From Candidatus Woesebacteria bacterium RIFCSPHIGHO2_01_FULL_39_32 (GTDB taxonomy: Bacteria; Patescibacteriota; Microgenomatia; UBA8517), in the NCBI GenBank assembly GCA_001792345.1, contig MGGJ01000013.1, positions 85,371-149,370 on the forward strand: a stretch of 64,000 nt of DNA, read 5' to 3'. Below, in pieces: positions 47,521-54,639 of the stretch (positions within the stretch are counted from its first letter, which is position 1; each line of letters begins with the position of its first letter). The position numbers and the translations under genes were made by a program. The notes under the pieces were generated by a model. The model had not been told where the DNA came from and searched no databases. It saw only the letters and a program-made list of their open reading frames with translations.

Positions 47521-47585
47521 TAACTCCAAGCTGCCTCGACTAAATTTTCCAAAAGAGCTAAATTTGTAACAGTGCGATTCCGATT
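47521..47585. repeat. Direct repeat of the folD 3' end (partner at 48415-48470) flanking the VanY gene
   Basis: GCTGCCTCGAC(T/C)AAATTTTCCAAAAGAGCT has 30 of 31 positions identical, with decaying similarity for ~20 more nt. The partner copy encodes the FolD C-terminus LLENLVEAAI. Confidence 0.6.
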
Positions 47586-48399
47586 ATTCTAATTTATACT
47601 TTCCTCCACCCCCAACGGGTCTCTCAGGTCTTATCGGATGAGAGGTTCTTTTTTCTAAATACGCTTTTTGGAGATCAAAAACGTCACTTTCCCAACCATT
47701 TTTTCTCAAAGCTTGGAAATATTCTGCAACGTTTTTTCCGACATATATCCAATGCCATGATTCGTTTGTTATACCGTCGTGGCCTCGATCGTAAGAAATG
47801 ACAAAACCGTATTCCCAAGCGTTTTTTACTAACCATTCATATTCCCTTGTTTTTTCAAATCCCGCTCCTTCTTTAGCTACATTCCCAATGCTGAGAGTAG
47901 TAAAGTCAAGCGCAAGACCTGTATGGTGTTGTGAAGTTCCTGGCAGCATTGATGTTTTATTATCCTCGCCTTCGCGCTTATGTATTAATTCCTGTTCTTC
48001 CCAAGAACGGTATCCGCTTCTTACTTTAATATCAACCCCAGCAATTGAAGATGCAATTAATAAATCTTCCAATGGTTGAACTACCAACGAATGGATTCTA
48101 ACTTTACCAGTAACATCTGCTCGTCTTAGGAACCCTTCGGGAGAAAACTGACTTAGAGGTTTTAGTTCAGGTTCTATTTCTTCCTTAATAAAAGATTGCT
48201 CTAAAGGATGCTCTCTATCGACCAACTTAACGCATAATAGATCTTCGGGTTCGGGAAGATTTGTTGGCTCTTTGTCGGAAGTTGTGTTAGAAAATTCATT
48301 GGGTTTTAACGCAAGAGTCCCGAGACCCAGTGCACTAAGTTTTAAGAAATCTCTTCTTGTAACTTGTTTTTGATTTGCTTCTGGATTATCTTCGCTCAT
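47584..48399 (-). CDS. Tat-secreted VanY-type D,D-carboxypeptidase (peptidase M15B)
   Basis: Twin-arginine signal RRDFLKLSALGLGTLAL. M15 motifs SGYRSWEEQ and H-x-x-G-x-A-x-D (QHHTGLALD). Confidence 0.7.
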   Translation of the reverse strand: MSEDNPEANQKQVTRRDFLKLSALGLGTLALKPNEFSNTTSDKEPTNLPEPEDLLCVKLVDREHPLEQSFIKEEIEPELKPLSQFSPEGFLRRADVTGKVRIHSLVVQPLEDLLIASSIAGVDIKVRSGYRSWEEQELIHKREGEDNKTSMLPGTSQHHTGLALDFTTLSIGNVAKEGAGFEKTREYEWLVKNAWEYGFVISYDRGHDGITNESWHWIYVGKNVAEYFQALRKNGWESDVFDLQKAYLEKRTSHPIRPERPVGGGGKYKLE

Positions 48400-48412: not shown

Positions 48413-49222
48413 TTAAATCGCTGCCTCGACCAAATTTTCCAAAAGAGCTGATATTGTGATGGGACCGATGCCACCTGGGACTGGAGAAATAAAAGCGGCT
48501 TTATCGATAATTTCATCGGCTTTTACATCGCCTTTCGGTGAGCCCACGTCTATAATCACAGCCCCATCCTTTATTTCCTCTTTTCCAATAATTCCAGGAG
48601 AACCTGTCACGCTTATCAAAATATCTGCTTGTCTTGTCTTAGTATTTAGATTTTCAATCTCTCTGTCGAGTCCTTCGACAACGTAGACCATTTCTTTCAT
48701 AACTTTAAAAATCTTTTTCCCTTCAAATCCCTTAGCTCCAACTACTGCCACCTTTAAAGGTGGCACCTTTAAAGTAATATAAGGAGTTGCTTCACGAACT
48801 ACTTCCAAAACTGCTTTTACAGTTGGGGTTAGATATAGACCATCTTCGCGTAAACCGTCAACATCTTTTTCTTTTGCAATTGTCTTAATTATTTCGTCTC
48901 TGTCTTTTTCAGAAAAATTCGCAGGAAGTGGCAACTGCACCATTATTCCGTGGGTACTTTCATCCTTATTTAAAGTCTGAATCAATCCAATAATCTTTTC
49001 TTTTCTTACATCTGACATCATACTTCTTACTTCTACTTCAGCTCCTACTCTTTCCGCTGCTTTTTTCTTTAATTTGACATACATAACGCTTGCCGGATTA
49101 TCTCCAACAAGAATTGAAACTAGTTTTGGTTTGATACTTCTTTCACTTAGTCTCTTAATCTCTTCTTTTAACTTAATTTCTTTCTCTCTCGCAAATGTTT
49201 TTCCATCAAAAATAATTGCCAT
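48413..49222 (-). CDS. folD: Bifunctional 5,10-methylene-THF dehydrogenase/cyclohydrolase
   Basis: N-terminal block AIIFDGKTFA...KLVSILVGDNPASVMYVKLKKKAAE and a C-terminal NAD(P)-binding domain. Confidence 0.85.
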   Translation of the reverse strand: MAIIFDGKTFAREKEIKLKEEIKRLSERSIKPKLVSILVGDNPASVMYVKLKKKAAERVGAEVEVRSMMSDVRKEKIIGLIQTLNKDESTHGIMVQLPLPANFSEKDRDEIIKTIAKEKDVDGLREDGLYLTPTVKAVLEVVREATPYITLKVPPLKVAVVGAKGFEGKKIFKVMKEMVYVVEGLDREIENLNTKTRQADILISVTGSPGIIGKEEIKDGAVIIDVGSPKGDVKADEIIDKAAFISPVPGGIGPITISALLENLVEAAI

Positions 49223-49332: not shown

Positions 49333-49602
49333 GTGAAAATAATGTATAAAGTTCAGAAAAAAGATGGTACACAAGAGGATTTTGACCCAAACAAGATATT
49401 AAGCGGGGTGAAGAAAGCGGGTGGATCCGAAGAGGATGCTCAGAAGGTTCTTTCTGAAATCCAGGCTTGGTTACCTACTGCAGCACAAAATAACGTAGTT
49501 AAAGCACTAGATATAAGAACAAAAGGACTCGAAGTGCTTGAACAAGTTAGTCCCGAAGTCTTTACAAAATTCAAATCCTACGAAAAACCGCCCACAAGCT
49601 AG
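49333..49602 (+). CDS. Stand-alone ATP-cone domain protein
   Basis: MYKVQKKDGTQEDFDPNKI matches the ATP-cone consensus (V.KRDG..E.F...KI). A GGAGG RBS lies 8 nt upstream. Confidence 0.55.
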   Translation: MKIMYKVQKKDGTQEDFDPNKILSGVKKAGGSEEDAQKVLSEIQAWLPTAAQNNVVKALDIRTKGLEVLEQVSPEVFTKFKSYEKPPTS

Positions 49603-49915: not shown

Positions 49916-51217
49916 TCAAGGAACTGGGAATTTTTGGCAGAGGGTTTTGACTTCAGAAGCAATACCCAACAAAAATTTATCTTTCTCAATTTTTGATCTG
50001 AATGCCTTCAAAAATGTTGATCTGGCTTCTGGTTTTTCAGGAAGTTTATAGGGCTTCACATAATCAATTACTTTTAAAATCCAAGTTGCAATTTGTTTCA
50101 TTTCCTTTTCCTTCATTCCCCTGGTTGTCAATGCGGGAGTACCAAGCCGCAATCCGGAAGGATAAAAGGGGGGCATTGTGTCATTTGGAACTGAATTCCT
50201 GTTTGCCACAATTCCCGCAACTTCCAAGCTTTGGGCAACAACATTTCCTGATAGTTCTAAAGGTCTTAAATCGACAACTAATAAATGGCATTCTGTTCCA
50301 TTTGCAACTAAGGTTAACCCTCCGTCCAACAGGGCGCTGGCTAGTGCCCTGGCATTTTTGACTACTTGTTTTCCGTAAGTCTTGAAAACAGGAGTATTTG
50401 CCTCCTCTAAAGAAATCGCGATTCCGGCAGTGGTATTGTTGTGCGGTCCTCCTTGCATACCGGGAATTATCGCCTTATCAATTTTTGCAGGAAGTTCAGG
50501 ATCTTTTTTAACTCCCTTAGCTGTCGCCAGAATCATGGCACCCCGCGGTCCACGTAAGGTCTTATGTGTTGTACTTGTAACAAGATGTGCGTGAGTAAAT
50601 GGCGAGGGATAAACCCCAGCAATAATTAAGCCAATAACATGAGAAGCATCTGCAACTAACCATGCCCCGATTGAGTCGGCTATTTCTGCGAGCTTTTTCC
50701 AATCAAAGGCTAGAGGATATGCGGTTGTTCCAATCAGCATGAGTTTTGGTTTTTCCTTTTGAGTTTGTGCACTGATCTTTTTGTAGTCTAATAACCCCTT
50801 ATCATCCAAGCCGAATTGTACAGAGTTAAAATATTTACCGGAAAAAGTAACTTTCGGATGACCGTGTGTTAAATGCCCGCCGGAAGCCAGTTCAAGACCC
50901 ATAATCGTGTCCCCGGGTTCAACTAAAGCAAACAAAACTTCTGAGTTGGCAGGAGAGCCGGAATACGGTTGGACATTTGCATAAGGAACTTTGAAGAGAT
51001 TTTTAGCGCGCTCAATTGCAAGGGTTTCAATTTCATCAATGATTTTATTTCCCTGATAATATCTGCGACCGGCATACCCTTCTGAATATTTATTTATTAA
51101 AACGGATCCGACGGCTTCCCGAACGGATTTTGAAGCATAATTCTCCGACGGAATCATCATAAGTGTTTCGCCCTGCCTTTTTTCTTCCTTTTTAATTAAT
51201 TCAAATATTTTATCCAT
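49916..51217 (-). CDS. glyA: Serine hydroxymethyltransferase
   Basis: NKYSEGYAGRRYY and PLP-lysine block VTSTTHKTLRGPRG. Confidence 0.9.
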   Translation of the reverse strand: MDKIFELIKKEEKRQGETLMMIPSENYASKSVREAVGSVLINKYSEGYAGRRYYQGNKIIDEIETLAIERAKNLFKVPYANVQPYSGSPANSEVLFALVEPGDTIMGLELASGGHLTHGHPKVTFSGKYFNSVQFGLDDKGLLDYKKISAQTQKEKPKLMLIGTTAYPLAFDWKKLAEIADSIGAWLVADASHVIGLIIAGVYPSPFTHAHLVTSTTHKTLRGPRGAMILATAKGVKKDPELPAKIDKAIIPGMQGGPHNNTTAGIAISLEEANTPVFKTYGKQVVKNARALASALLDGGLTLVANGTECHLLVVDLRPLELSGNVVAQSLEVAGIVANRNSVPNDTMPPFYPSGLRLGTPALTTRGMKEKEMKQIATWILKVIDYVKPYKLPEKPEARSTFLKAFRSKIEKDKFLLGIASEVKTLCQKFPVP

Positions 51218-51257: not shown

Positions 51258-52133
51258 TCATATTCTCTCTCCTCTACCACCTTGCAGCTCCGTAAAACCC
51301 CAGTCATTCCAATCTTTGTACATACTTTCTCTCAGTAGTTCCTTAGAAGGAAATCCTAAAGATCTTCTTACCTCTTCGACCAGTTGCTGATTCTCATTGA
51401 AGCTGTACAACCCTTTCTCGTTCAAAAGTCTTGCAAAGTCCGTGATGCTATCCAAAGAAAACTCCTTCAAACGATCAATTCCAGCTTCTCTACAACCCTT
51501 ATCCTCCGTCATTATATTCAAGATTTGGCCAGAAACTTCGTAAAGAATATCCCACGGATTTTTAAAAGCATCAATTACACAAACCCTATTCTTCTGGCTC
51601 TCAGCTAAAGATAAATAGTTAGTTCTGATAGCACAGTATATTTCTATCCCAACATCATCTCTCCAGTTTCTCTTGCCACCCAATCTCTTCGCTGTTTCAA
51701 CCCTAATCATAGATTCCTCAGCCGGCAAATCTAAATAAAAAGTTAGAGTTGGGTACCACTTGAAGGGGTTTTGCATGTTGTGAATATAGGAAATATCAGC
51801 TCCGTCAACCTGTTGCAAAGCAATCGAAGACCACCAACTTCTATCGGCTACTGAAATACCGTTAGGATTCTCCGATCGCCAAGGTCTGACTTTTTTTGTG
51901 ATTAATTCGTTTCTTGCCGCAGTAAACAGCAGTAAGTGGGTATTGGGGCTCATATCACTGAATTCTTCGGTAAATAGCAAGTTTCTTATGGCCTCTCCAA
52001 TTGGAGTACCACCCGGCTCCCGAATTCTTAAAACTGGACTCTTGACAAATTGTTCTAAAAAACTCGCAAGCAATGTGGATTGCGTAGTTTTTCCAACTCC
52101 TTCAGGTCCTTCTAATACAATACTTACTGACAT
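51258..52133 (-). CDS. tmk: Thymidylate kinase with a ~80-aa C-terminal extension
   Basis: P-loop LEGPEGVGKTTQ. A lid-like DRxxx region. Confidence 0.75.
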   Translation of the reverse strand: MSVSIVLEGPEGVGKTTQSTLLASFLEQFVKSPVLRIREPGGTPIGEAIRNLLFTEEFSDMSPNTHLLLFTAARNELITKKVRPWRSENPNGISVADRSWWSSIALQQVDGADISYIHNMQNPFKWYPTLTFYLDLPAEESMIRVETAKRLGGKRNWRDDVGIEIYCAIRTNYLSLAESQKNRVCVIDAFKNPWDILYEVSGQILNIMTEDKGCREAGIDRLKEFSLDSITDFARLLNEKGLYSFNENQQLVEEVRRSLGFPSKELLRESMYKDWNDWGFTELQGGRGERI

Positions 52134-52178: not shown

Positions 52179-54032
52179 TTAACTTCTCCCATCAGTAATA
52201 TTAGAAAGCTTTTCCTGGGTTCTGACTTCTGCTTTTAATCTACCTAAACCATAATCTTCTACCCAGTTAACGTGGGCAAAATGTGGTTCTAAAAACGGAT
52301 ATACTCCGAGAATTTGGCGAGCAGCTTCCTGTAAAGCTCTTCTATATGAAGGGTGACCCCCTTCAATAGTTCGAAGCTCCGCAAAAAATGCCCACTGACG
52401 TATGTTTGCCCGTACATTAAACCTCAATTTATTTCCAAACATTGTTACGTACTCAGAAGCGTCAAACAATTTCGGATTACCGCTTGTCGTCAATTTCCTG
52501 TTTAAATCCTTAGTTGATTGAGCTAATCGCTCGTAATCAGTTCGCACCTCCTCCATTCCTTCCTCATAAAATTCCTCTGGTATAAACAATTCATCTGCTG
52601 TAAGCATTTGGCGCTCAGTTGAGCTTATTCTATTCCTTTGTAAATCTCTATAAATACCAAAATCTACATCGAATTCGACCTCTGCTGTGGTGTGCTCGAA
52701 AGCACGAGGGAGTTTATGGCGTCTACTTAAGCCCTTTGCACTTCTTTCCGGAACTGCAGATGCGATTAACTCTGCAAGTCTCGGGCTATATGTTAACTCG
52801 GGATTTCTCTGCAAATCTTCTTCTTTGATTACCCTTAACCGTTCTCTGATAGCTGCTTTTGATAGTCCTTTATTTTTTTGTCCAGTATATACCAGTTGAG
52901 TTGCTATCCTTAAATCAGCATCCTCGTCCCAATCAACTAACCTAACTGCTTCAGTATCTCCGGGAGTAATTCCCTCAACCCAGCTTTCAACCGCGGTTCT
53001 CTGGGTATTCCTAACATCTCTCAGATATTCTCTAGTTCTTGATCCATGGGCGTGATCCACATTCTGCAAAAAACTCGGTGCAACTTTTTCCAACTCGTGA
53101 TAAGCCATAACTCCGAGAAGCCTTACTTCCGGATGTTGGGAGGAAATCATCTTATTTATTGTATGCTCTGCAGCTTGTCCAGAATAGTGAGCACCTAAAT
53201 TTGTAACGGTAGTAGTAGGAAGAAAAACTCGAATAGTATCAAAGGTTTTTGCCTTTAATGCGCGTTCATACGCTTTTTGCACCCTTACTTTATCATCCTC
53301 GTTTCCTATTTCATCATATTTAACTTCCTGACCTGTGCTAGGAACTAAGACAACCTGTTCCTCTAAAGGATATTTCCTTCTTAACATCAGTTGTGTTGCT
53401 GGGATGTGCCTTTTATATGCTTCGAATGATGCAATACTCCAATCCAGATATTCCTGCGCAAATTCAGAATTCATTACTGTTGGCTCCTCCATAAAAAGAA
53501 AATGCCCATCAACGTTGCTTCCGAAATCTACATATCTAGTTGACTTTTCAATGTAGGCAGAGGCAACTCTCTGGTCTTCAATTGCCTTGGCTGCTATTTG
53601 AGAAACAAATTCGAAAGAAATGTGAACACTTCCCATTTGAATTACCGAGTCATCGCCATATTCGGCAAATACTCTCCTATAAAATTTCTCCGCGTGTTCC
53701 TTAGCGCTTTCAATTCCTTCTCCTTTTGTTTCTATAATATTTTCCGTTATATTCTGTATGCCTAGTTCCTCACTTGCCCAAAATTCATCTAAAAATACTC
53801 GACGCACACTTTTACTAGTCCGACTGTATCTTGAAAACATCGCCCCAACAACTTCTTGAGGAAGACCATATATAGCAAAAACAGGGCTATCTGTATTTGT
53901 AAAGAACTTGGATAAAACTGCCTCTTCTTCTGGAGTAAATTCTTCTTGTGTGTAAGGAAAAGGGAATCTGTCAGGAAGAGAAAGAGTTTCTGTTTTTAAA
54001 ACGTGCGTTTTTTCAAGAAACTCTCTAGTCAT
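52179..54032 (-). CDS. thyX: Fused tandem ThyX-like protein (two flavin-dependent thymidylate-synthase-like domains) with non-canonical RHR motifs
   Basis: The C-terminal domain aligns to the ThyX core (HTTAEVEFDVDFGIYRDLQRNRISSTERQ versus H.T.FE..VFTF.V.API.VARQ..RHR.AS..E.S.RY, and FNVRANIRQWAFFAELR versus [20 protein letters not shown]). The N-terminal half has a weaker ThyX-like block (FAIYGLPQEVVGAMFSRYSRTS). Flanked by tmk and dcd. Confidence 0.5.
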   Translation of the reverse strand: MTREFLEKTHVLKTETLSLPDRFPFPYTQEEFTPEEEAVLSKFFTNTDSPVFAIYGLPQEVVGAMFSRYSRTSKSVRRVFLDEFWASEELGIQNITENIIETKGEGIESAKEHAEKFYRRVFAEYGDDSVIQMGSVHISFEFVSQIAAKAIEDQRVASAYIEKSTRYVDFGSNVDGHFLFMEEPTVMNSEFAQEYLDWSIASFEAYKRHIPATQLMLRRKYPLEEQVVLVPSTGQEVKYDEIGNEDDKVRVQKAYERALKAKTFDTIRVFLPTTTVTNLGAHYSGQAAEHTINKMISSQHPEVRLLGVMAYHELEKVAPSFLQNVDHAHGSRTREYLRDVRNTQRTAVESWVEGITPGDTEAVRLVDWDEDADLRIATQLVYTGQKNKGLSKAAIRERLRVIKEEDLQRNPELTYSPRLAELIASAVPERSAKGLSRRHKLPRAFEHTTAEVEFDVDFGIYRDLQRNRISSTERQMLTADELFIPEEFYEEGMEEVRTDYERLAQSTKDLNRKLTTSGNPKLFDASEYVTMFGNKLRFNVRANIRQWAFFAELRTIEGGHPSYRRALQEAARQILGVYPFLEPHFAHVNWVEDYGLGRLKAEVRTQEKLSNITDGRS

Positions 54033-54099: not shown

Positions 54100-54639
54100 T
54101 TACACCTGTTTTTCTTTTTTCTTCATCAATACCCGTCCACCGCGCCATTGTCCTCTGTATGAAGTTCCTCCGCCATCTACGTATTCAAACTGAACGTGCA
54201 TGAATCTTGCTCCTAATTCTATCTCGATTTCGCTAGGTCCCACATTTGCGATTGAAGTAACTAGTGGGCCAGAATAACCTGGAGCAATTTGGCTTAATCC
54301 CTGAAGTAAACCGCTACGAAATATCGTCGATCGAGGGAATAAATATCCTCCAATATTTTCAGGTAAATTAACGCTTTCTAAAGTTTTTACTAAGTAATAG
54401 CTTCCTGCTTTAAAAGTAAAAGTTTTTTTCTTTCCTTCAATGTAAGAAGCCAAAACTTTTGTGTCCGGCGTTTTTCTCTCTTCAATCCCTAAAAACCCTT
54501 TTCCTTTTAACTCGTGCACCTCGCCCAGCCGTAAATCAAATCCAGCGCCCTCGGGATTTTTCAATTCACGCTCAGTTAGATTTTCAACAAGTTTCTTTTC
54601 CTTAACCAGTTTTAAAAGTATTTTCGGTCCAATCGGCAT
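54100..54639 (-). CDS. dcd: dCTP deaminase / dUTPase-superfamily protein
   Basis: GAGFDLRLG and PGYSGPL resemble Dcd motifs. Confidence 0.7.
   Translation of the reverse strand: MPIGPKILLKLVKEKKLVENLTERELKNPEGAGFDLRLGEVHELKGKGFLGIEERKTPDTKVLASYIEGKKKTFTFKAGSYYLVKTLESVNLPENIGGYLFPRSTIFRSGLLQGLSQIAPGYSGPLVTSIANVGPSEIEIELGARFMHVQFEYVDGGGTSYRGQWRGGRVLMKKKEKQV

Follow-up and report, generated by a model that had tools for sequence, protein, structure and literature searches.

A tandem ThyX-family protein of a Woesebacteria genome, with the ThyX signature divided between its two domains

Two ThyX domains in one open reading frame

The window analysed here is a stretch of 64,000 nucleotides from the genome of Candidatus Woesebacteria bacterium RIFCSPHIGHO2_01_FULL_39_32 (assembly GCA_001792345.1, contig MGGJ01000013.1, positions 85,371 to 149,370), a member of the Patescibacteria (also called the Candidate Phyla Radiation, or CPR). 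Among genes of thymidylate and folate metabolism, it harbors on the minus strand a complete open reading frame (ORF) of 617 amino acids (aa), located exactly where an earlier note, made from the sequence alone, had placed it. That note had described the product as a fused double flavin-dependent thymidylate synthase (ThyX) and had argued from its context that it is the thymidylate synthase of the cell. The core of this reading, a fused double ThyX that most likely acts as a thymidylate synthase, is supported by the recovery of both domains with hidden Markov models (HMM) and predicted fold, by a conserved pathway context, and by relatives fused to dUTPase or thymidylate kinase. The protein is 100% identical to the GenBank entry A2715_02210 of the same bacterium, which is labelled 'hypothetical protein'; several relatives are named 'FAD-dependent thymidylate synthase' by NCBI/JGI. 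The ORF and its parts are as follows.

52179..54032, minus strand: tandem ThyX ORF, complete, 617 aa, consisting of N-domain, linker helix and C-domain
53067..53927, minus strand: N-terminal ThyX domain (aa ~36-322), supported by Pfam Thy1, an N-only profile and an N-only model
52950..53066, minus strand: linker joining the two domains (aa 323-361), for the most part a single long helix, modelled at aa 328-352
52233..52949, minus strand: C-terminal ThyX domain (aa 362-600), supported by Pfam Thy1, hhalign and matches to ThyX from PBCV-1 and from Mycobacterium tuberculosis

Both halves are genuine ThyX domains by HMM and predicted fold. A search with a ThyX HMM had been proposed as a check, and the Pfam model Thy1 (PF02511, gathering score 24.8 bits) matches the whole protein in two stretches (80.4 bits, E=2e-22) as well as each half alone, in both cases above the gathering score. 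The N-half (aa 1-354), which had been regarded as the more degenerate of the two, is the better match with 50.0 bits (E=4e-13), against 38.1 bits (E=1.8e-9) for the C-half (aa 327-617). The N-domain carries inserted helices at aa ~76-106 and a further insertion at ~aa 170-260. A direct phmmer search of the protein against the sequences of the Protein Data Bank (PDB) gave nothing relevant, so that a family profile was needed for this comparison; it matches the ThyX of PBCV-1 and M. tuberculosis. The N-only profile finds M. tuberculosis ThyX among the PDB sequences at E=2.6e-4 in two co-linear segments, and the C-half profile aligns by hhalign with residues 10-215 of Thermotoga maritima ThyX at E=1.6e-5.

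An AlphaFold2 model of the full-length protein, built from an alignment of 29 family sequences, is confident, with a mean predicted local distance difference test score (pLDDT) of 87.3 and a predicted template modelling score (pTM) of 0.86. The best 50 PDB matches of this model in Foldseek are all ThyX chains, drawn from the enzymes of T. maritima, M. tuberculosis, PBCV-1 and Thermus thermophilus, with a probability of 1.0 throughout and a target-normalised template modelling score (TM) of up to 0.71. The table of full-length matches does not tell which domain was matched, and the N-half was therefore modelled separately. The N-half model (pLDDT 75.2) retrieves, among the matches listed, only ThyX-family structures with a probability of 1.0 (TM ~0.53 to M. 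tuberculosis ThyX).

The two halves show no similarity to each other by BLASTP and only a marginal one by profile-profile comparison with hhalign (E=0.063), which indicates that the duplication is ancient. They are too diverged for a duplication to be demonstrated by direct comparison, and each half is therefore tied to ThyX separately.

Distribution of active-site residues between the two halves

Canonical ThyX (PF02511, EC 2.1.1.148), for example that of T. maritima (TM0449), M. tuberculosis, PBCV-1 or Helicobacter pylori, has a subunit of ~220-250 aa, and its tetramer has 222 symmetry. The enzyme is a homotetramer in which each of the four active sites is made by three subunits (PMC6514825). 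Subunit A contributes the R-H-R motif, which binds the phosphates and the ribityl chain of flavin adenine dinucleotide (FAD) and whose first Arg also touches the flavin and deoxyuridine monophosphate (dUMP), together with M. tuberculosis R199 (T. maritima R174) contacting dUMP; subunit B contributes the FAD-phosphate ligands Ser71 and Arg190 (T. maritima T55 and R165); and subunit C contributes a 'lid' formed by the backbone of Q103 and by S105, R107 and Y108 (T. maritima E86, S88, R90 and Y91) (PMC6514825). The A and B subunits of the M. tuberculosis enzyme form a pair with facing FAD riboses (PMC6514825). The same division is seen in PBCV-1 ThyX, where Gln75 and Arg182 come from one monomer and Ser88, Gln89 and Arg90 from another (PMC3498832), and S88, R90, Y91 and R174 are each important for catalysis (PMC8316439, PMC11940539).

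Residues were mapped with three independent alignments, namely the family profile against M. tuberculosis and PBCV-1 ThyX, the N-only profile against M. tuberculosis ThyX, and hhalign against T. maritima ThyX, whose numbering is used below unless stated otherwise. The T. maritima sequence used for hhalign reproduces all of the published residue numbers, namely H53, Q75, R78-R80, S88, R90, Y91, E144, R147, R174 and H178. For the N-domain the local hhalign alignment to T. maritima ThyX is coherent but weak (E=0.12), the global mode being defeated by the insertions, and it was accepted because it agrees with the family-profile and N-only-profile alignments. At GDDS the register of hhalign and HMMER disagreed, and HMMER was followed. 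The mapped segments are listed below.

53814..53849, minus strand: VGAMFSRYSRTS (aa 62-73), block of helix alpha-1, which in the model directly follows strand beta-1
53646..53657, minus strand: GDDS (aa 126-129), equivalent of the canonical G-H53-x-S/T55, His replaced by Asp127 and Ser129 kept (= T55)
53532..53579, minus strand: EDQRVASAYIEKSTRY (aa 152-167), motif region of the N-domain
53217..53240, minus strand: DTIRVFLP (aa 265-272), with D265 (= T. maritima E144) and R268 (= T. maritima R147, M. tuberculosis R172)
53148..53183, minus strand: SGQAAEHTINKM (aa 284-295), N-domain counterpart of N163-x-R165...R174
52692..52724, minus strand: RRHKLPRAFEH (aa 437-447), equivalent of the canonical 'xxHGH53ET55PFE58H'
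52620..52646, minus strand: DLQRNRISS (aa 463-471), RHRxxS half of the ThyX signature
52596..52619, minus strand: TERQMLTA (aa 472-479), C-domain loop at the canonical S88-x-R90-Y91 site
52371..52406, minus strand: NIRQWAFFAELR (aa 543-554), with N543 (= N163), R545 (= R165, FAD phosphate) and R554 (= R174, dUMP activation)

The block VGAMFSRYSRTS, given in the earlier note for the N-terminal ThyX domain, is helix alpha-1 rather than a ThyX motif and lies at the 'AVRAARVSF' block of T. maritima; its S67, S70 and R71 do not vary across the family. The equivalent of the motif is EDQRVASAYIEKSTRY, in which R78 and H79 are lost (D153 and Q154) and R155 (= R80), E162 (= E86), S164 (= S88), R166 (= R90) and Y167 (= Y91) are kept, the S-x-R-Y half of the ThyX signature being present as EKSTRY. 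All three residues of the N163-x-R165...R174 helix are replaced in SGQAAEHTINKM, by S284, Q286 and M295, with K294 one residue before the R174 position.

In the C-domain, the stretch RNRISSTER had been taken for the whole signature RHRxxS...SxRY. Its first part holds, RNRISS (aa 466-471) being the RHRxxS half, with D463 (= Q75), R466 (= R78), N467 (= H79), R468 (= R80) and S471 (= S83). Its second part does not, since T472, E473 and R474 align to T. maritima Y84, N85 and E86, and S-x-R-Y is missing from the C-domain: M476, T478 and A479 occupy the positions of S88, R90 and Y91, and E527 that of R147. In RRHKLPRAFEH, E446 (= E58) does not vary, Leu441 stands where H53 would be (Leu or Pro in the family), and T55 is replaced by an invariant Arg. 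The helix N543-x-R545...R554 is present as the note had stated, and R554 provides the equivalent of the dUMP-activating Arg (T. maritima R174, M. tuberculosis R199), found in the C-domain only. By alignment, the C-domain provides the FAD-phosphate ligands R466, N467, R468 and R545, and the N-domain provides S129. A contiguous RHRxxSxxxxSxRY is absent from either single domain and is complete only when both are combined. What had appeared as degenerate RHR motifs is a signature split between the domains, complementary and strongly conserved.

Conservation was first counted on loci picked by a scan for the motifs EKS[TS]RY and GDDS, a count that is circular at these very positions and was therefore repeated on an unbiased set of 131 full-length representatives from an exhaustive search plus this protein (132 sequences), with the following result.

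S88: N-domain Ser 132/132; C-domain variable
R90: N-domain Arg 132/132; C-domain Thr/Ser/Gly
Y91: N-domain Tyr 129/132; C-domain variable
E86: N-domain Glu 127/132; C-domain Arg/Trp
R147: N-domain Arg 131/132; C-domain Gln/Glu
R80: N-domain Arg 131/132; C-domain Arg 130/132
R78: N-domain Asp 66, Arg 27, Trp 15; C-domain Arg 132/132
H79: N-domain variable; C-domain His 122, Asn 4, Gln 3
R165: N-domain Arg 68, Gln 62; C-domain Arg 127/132
R174: N-domain never Arg (Leu 73, Met 46); C-domain Arg 131/132
N163: N-domain Asn 74, Ser 36; C-domain Asn 116/132
E58: N-domain Glu 65, Gln 59; C-domain Glu 132/132

In addition, D127 (127/132), S129 (132/132) and D265 (132/132) are conserved in the N-domain. 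Neither half has the full set of residues. The sets of canonical active-site residues that the two halves keep are complementary and hardly overlap, and each set corresponds to the contribution of a different subunit in the canonical homotetramer. In the first, motif-selected set, each of the 22 sequences of the Patescibacteria type has RNR, and 82 of the 83 others have RHR; the Asn is a Patescibacteria-clade-specific replacement of an FAD-phosphate ligand, which we regard as conservative because Asn can still donate a hydrogen bond.

Two further conserved elements have no canonical ThyX counterpart. One is E473-R474-Q475, kept across the family in the loop that replaces S-x-R-Y, and the other is a family-specific C-terminal tail, G-L-G-R-L-x-A-E (52224-52250, minus strand), whose R598 is found in 125/132 sequences.

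Family distribution and gene neighbourhood

The note had considered a tandem fusion unusual, which the searches contradict. A word-indexed search returned 977 relatives, nearly all of 550-650 aa, and HMMER, run exhaustively against 1.84 billion cluster representatives, returned at least 1,059 clusters (50% identity) at E<=1e-30, the best 150 of which are almost all 500-620 aa long. When genomes were scanned at one per species, at least 578 species had a full-length relative. Carriers include, among Bacteria, Patescibacteria, Chloroflexota, Acidobacteriota, Binatia, 'Deltaproteobacteria', Nitrospirota, Omnitrophota and Cyanobacteria, with the cultured Chlorogloeopsis fritschii PCC 6912 and Fischerella thermalis PCC 7521, and, among Archaea, DPANN and Nitrososphaerales. 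Tandem ThyX is therefore a large and widespread subfamily of which this gene is an ordinary member. The protein falls in the ThyX superfamily by its domain model and its fold and probably works as ThyX does, but neither domain by itself has the contiguous signature, His53 or a match to the curated equivalog model, and it is best described as belonging to a distinct tandem ThyX subfamily. One family entry of 278 aa (P0257) consists of the C-domain only, starts with Met and has the normal C-terminus of the family; it may be a split-gene form, with N-like and C-like subunits encoded apart, or the result of a frameshift. Other short matches to the N-domain or the C-domain only are mostly truncated fragments.

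On the minus strand the genes follow in the order topA, dcd-like, thyX, tmk and glyA, and then come an ATP-cone ORF on the opposite strand and folD. The gaps are short, with 67 bp between the dcd-like gene and thyX, 45 bp between thyX and tmk, and 40 bp between tmk and glyA. The neighbours named in the earlier note (tmk, dcd-like, glyA, folD) are all present, but it had ordered them by plus-strand coordinates: in the direction of transcription the dcd-like gene lies upstream and tmk downstream. In a scan for promoters and terminators the counts did not exceed those of shuffled controls, and the scan was not used. The neighbouring genes are listed here.

54100..54639, minus strand: gene of the dCTP deaminase/dUTPase family, 179 aa (Pfam DCD E=1.6e-20; PDB dCTP deaminases E=2.7e-14)
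51258..52133, minus strand: thymidylate kinase tmk, 291 aa, downstream of thyX, consuming deoxythymidine monophosphate (dTMP)
49916..51217, minus strand: serine hydroxymethyltransferase (SHMT) glyA (E=2.2e-145), regenerating methylene-tetrahydrofolate
49333-49602, plus strand: ATP-cone-only ORF, 89 aa (PF03477, E=4.8e-9), between glyA and folD
48413..49222, minus strand: folD, methylene-tetrahydrofolate dehydrogenase/cyclohydrolase
47584-48399, minus strand: VanY-type D-Ala-D-Ala carboxypeptidase (PF02557, E=1.1e-27), directly downstream of folD

Together these genes make up the whole path from dCTP/dUTP to dTDP and also regenerate methylene-tetrahydrofolate. The dcd-like gene likely supplies dUTP or dUMP. 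Its product falls under the NCBIfam cut-offs (72 vs 92.8 bits for dCTP deaminase and 64 vs 130 bits for the archaeal-type dUTPase), and its best solved relatives are the ~155-aa dCTP deaminases 8y1w and 9ln0; it might be a bifunctional dCTP deaminase-dUTPase handing dUMP straight to ThyX. No thyA was found by tblastn with Escherichia coli ThyA, which gave nothing significant in the window or in 80 related loci, and there is no second thyX within the window.

The order thyX-tmk-glyA(-folD) is repeated in other Patescibacteria (loci L001 and L002), and glyA adjoins the tandem thyX in eight DPANN archaeal loci. Moreover, some relatives are fused to enzymes of the same pathway: one protein of 703 aa (P0144) joins a dUTPase to tandem ThyX, and two from separate clusters (P0255, 767 aa, and P0260, 779 aa) join a thymidylate kinase to it. 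A further one (P0076, 741 aa), encoded on a 741-kb contig, has a C-terminal domain resembling nucleoside 2-deoxyribosyltransferase. Each type of fusion is rare, with one or two members. That tandem ThyX is joined in nature to a producer of dUMP as well as to a consumer of dTMP supports an activity as thymidylate synthase strongly, if indirectly.

Some features of the neighbouring genes are also worth recording. In the tmk product the Tmk domain ends at ~aa 192 and is followed by a C-terminal extension of ~100 aa with no Pfam match. The ATP-cone ORF has neither the zinc ribbon of NrdR nor a reductase domain, and may be a small nucleotide-sensing regulator of the deoxynucleotide/folate cluster. 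The VanY-type protein shows weak matches to a twin-arginine signal near its N-terminus.

Predicted enzyme, alternatives and known ThyX systems

Taking together the two ThyX domains, their complementary conservation, the gene context and the fusions, we consider it probable that the protein converts dUMP to dTMP as a flavin-dependent thymidylate synthase belonging to a tandem subfamily, and we infer that it would act as a dimer resembling a tetramer, with two live and two dead sites. An ancient duplication and fusion would have been followed by a division of labour between the halves. The C-domain retains the residues of subunit A plus R165 and would serve FAD binding and dUMP activation, probably with the role of subunit B as well, and the N-domain retains the dUMP-binding and lid residues of subunit C plus the R147 equivalent. 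Two chains would pair as a pseudo-tetramer N, C, N', C'. In this arrangement two FADs would sit in the two C-domains and the dUMP lids would come from the N-domains, giving two complete active sites. The two remaining positions, with the N-domain acting as A and the C-domain as C, would be catalytically dead because they lack R174, S88, R90 and Y91. R165 acts from another subunit than R-H-R and is nevertheless nearly invariant in the same C-domain, which argues for a pair of C-domains meeting at the true two-fold axis, as the A/B pair of M. tuberculosis ThyX does. The enzyme would probably work within an operon for dTTP synthesis consisting of the dCTP-deaminase-like protein, ThyX, Tmk and SHMT, with FolD farther along the strand.

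Several points weigh against this interpretation. His53, which stacks on flavin and folate, is gone from both domains, being Asp in the N-domain (127/132) and Pro or Leu in the C-domain (111/132). The assignment of the subunit-B role is ambiguous, with the equivalent of Ser55 invariant in the N-domain and R165 in the C-domain, and R147 was placed in the subunit-C set from its conservation pattern and not from a cited structure. Finally, the protein is remote from canonical ThyX, with 12-18% identity in structural alignments, and the curated NCBIfam equivalog model of ThyX has no match to it at E<=0.1, the search giving one spurious hit only.

The dead sites of this scheme could also be put to use, in a thymidylate synthase whose second site pair binds another ligand (NADPH, a second flavin or an allosteric nucleotide) in a regulatory or reductant-binding role. 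The N-domain keeps an invariant R155, equivalent to the FAD-phosphate ligand R80, and S129, equivalent to Ser55; N163 and R165 are still found there in roughly half of the family, R78 is kept in 27/132, and a Lys or Arg lies one residue ahead of the R174 position in 105/132. The conserved C-domain loop E473-R474-Q475 at the S-x-R-Y site and the NADP+ found in the FAD site of M. tuberculosis ThyX (PMC6514825) point the same way. However, in the Patescibacteria clade, including this protein, N163 and R165 of the N-domain have become Ser and Gln and R78 has become Asp, so that a nucleotide site in the N-domain looks poorly equipped, and we regard this alternative as rather unlikely. It appears quite unlikely that the enzyme is obligately asymmetric, with its vestigial sites given a new job as an NADPH/reductant or allosteric nucleotide site. 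If true, this would separate functions that compete for one pocket in canonical ThyX, and would define a widespread and possibly ancient lineage (CPR, DPANN, Nitrososphaerales, Cyanobacteria) with a mechanistically distinct reductive half-reaction, with which the loss of His53 is consistent.

The remote similarity, the missing His53 and the lack of an NCBIfam match would also fit a ThyX-fold flavoenzyme acting on another substrate, the real synthase being encoded elsewhere: a UMP/dUMP methylase like PolB of Streptomyces cacaoi (4p5a), a dCMP modifier, or a protein like the atypical ThyX of Corynebacterium glutamicum (3fnn, 3ge9). PolB and the C. glutamicum protein are among the structural matches of the N-half, more weakly than M. 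tuberculosis ThyX. PolB is a UMP/dUMP C5-methylase and C. glutamicum ThyX is non-essential, which shows that a homologue of ThyX may act on another substrate or may not be needed by the cell. This explanation nonetheless seems very unlikely here: all known dUMP-binding and dUMP-activating residues (R78, R174, S88, R90, Y91) are kept in trans, the gene lies between a producer of dUTP/dUMP and thymidylate kinase and beside SHMT, relatives are fused to dUTPase and thymidylate kinase, and the occurrence of the family in minimal CPR and DPANN genomes makes a housekeeping role likelier than a specialised one. As to oligomeric state, the high pTM of the full-length model suggests a defined packing of N- and C-domain within one chain, as would be expected of a functional monomer, a single N-C pseudo-dimer with one composite site and no third subunit. 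Canonical sites need three subunits, though, and the presence of both R165 and R-H-R in the C-domain implies two C-domains per assembly and argues against a monomeric enzyme, which we hold to be most improbable.

If the protein is the predicted dimeric thymidylate synthase, its two halves with different retained roles offer a natural genetic dissection of a shared site and tell which residues have to work in trans. As a target for antibacterials ThyX is validated, but its mechanism is still debated, partly because each site is shared by three identical subunits. The tandem family is also a candidate thymidylate synthase for many uncultivated lineages with small genomes (CPR, DPANN) and for some cultured cyanobacteria. 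Given the 'hypothetical' label of this protein and the miss by the curated NCBIfam model, reconstructions based on strict models could overlook thymidylate synthesis in such genomes and wrongly score the carriers as thymidylate auxotrophs.

Databases already label the family ThyX, of which it is a variant with a complementary split of the active site. No description of this variant, or of any tandem, duplicated, fused or dimeric ThyX, was found in the searchable full-text literature, including papers on ThyX evolution, a scope outside which many subscription journals lie. A candidate for an already studied member is the ThyX of Chlamydia trachomatis: it has a length of about 529 aa, typical of the tandem family outside Patescibacteria. 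It is the protein CT632, reportedly described by Griffin et al. in 2005 (JBC). Look-ups among the family representatives of ~525-535 aa returned no chlamydial names. C. trachomatis ThyX is active and has been used in NADPH-oxidation assays (PMC3498832), and the sequences of chlamydial ThyX share so little identity with the others that the first phylogeny of ThyX omitted them (PMC6171736). Should the chlamydial protein belong to the tandem family, this architecture would already have been characterised biochemically, its function would be more certain and its novelty lower, and the asymmetry would be relevant to inhibitor design.

Among known systems, PolB and the atypical C. glutamicum ThyX share the ThyX fold with the tandem protein. 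Unlike tandem ThyX, they are single-domain homo-oligomers, with no tmk/dcd/glyA context and no complementary split of motifs. Canonical ThyX is similar to the tandem protein in the fold of both halves, in the residues R78, R80, R165, R174, E86, S88, R90, Y91 and R147, and in a context of dUTPase/dcd, tmk and SHMT genes. The tandem protein differs from it in being one chain of ~600 aa with two diverged domains and large insertions in the N-domain, instead of a homotetramer subunit of ~220-250 aa; in its split signature, of which the C-domain carries R-x-R-x-x-S and the N-domain S-x-R-Y; in the absence of His53 from both domains and, in the Patescibacteria clade, the Asn at H79; and in a predicted number of two active sites, where canonical ThyX has four.

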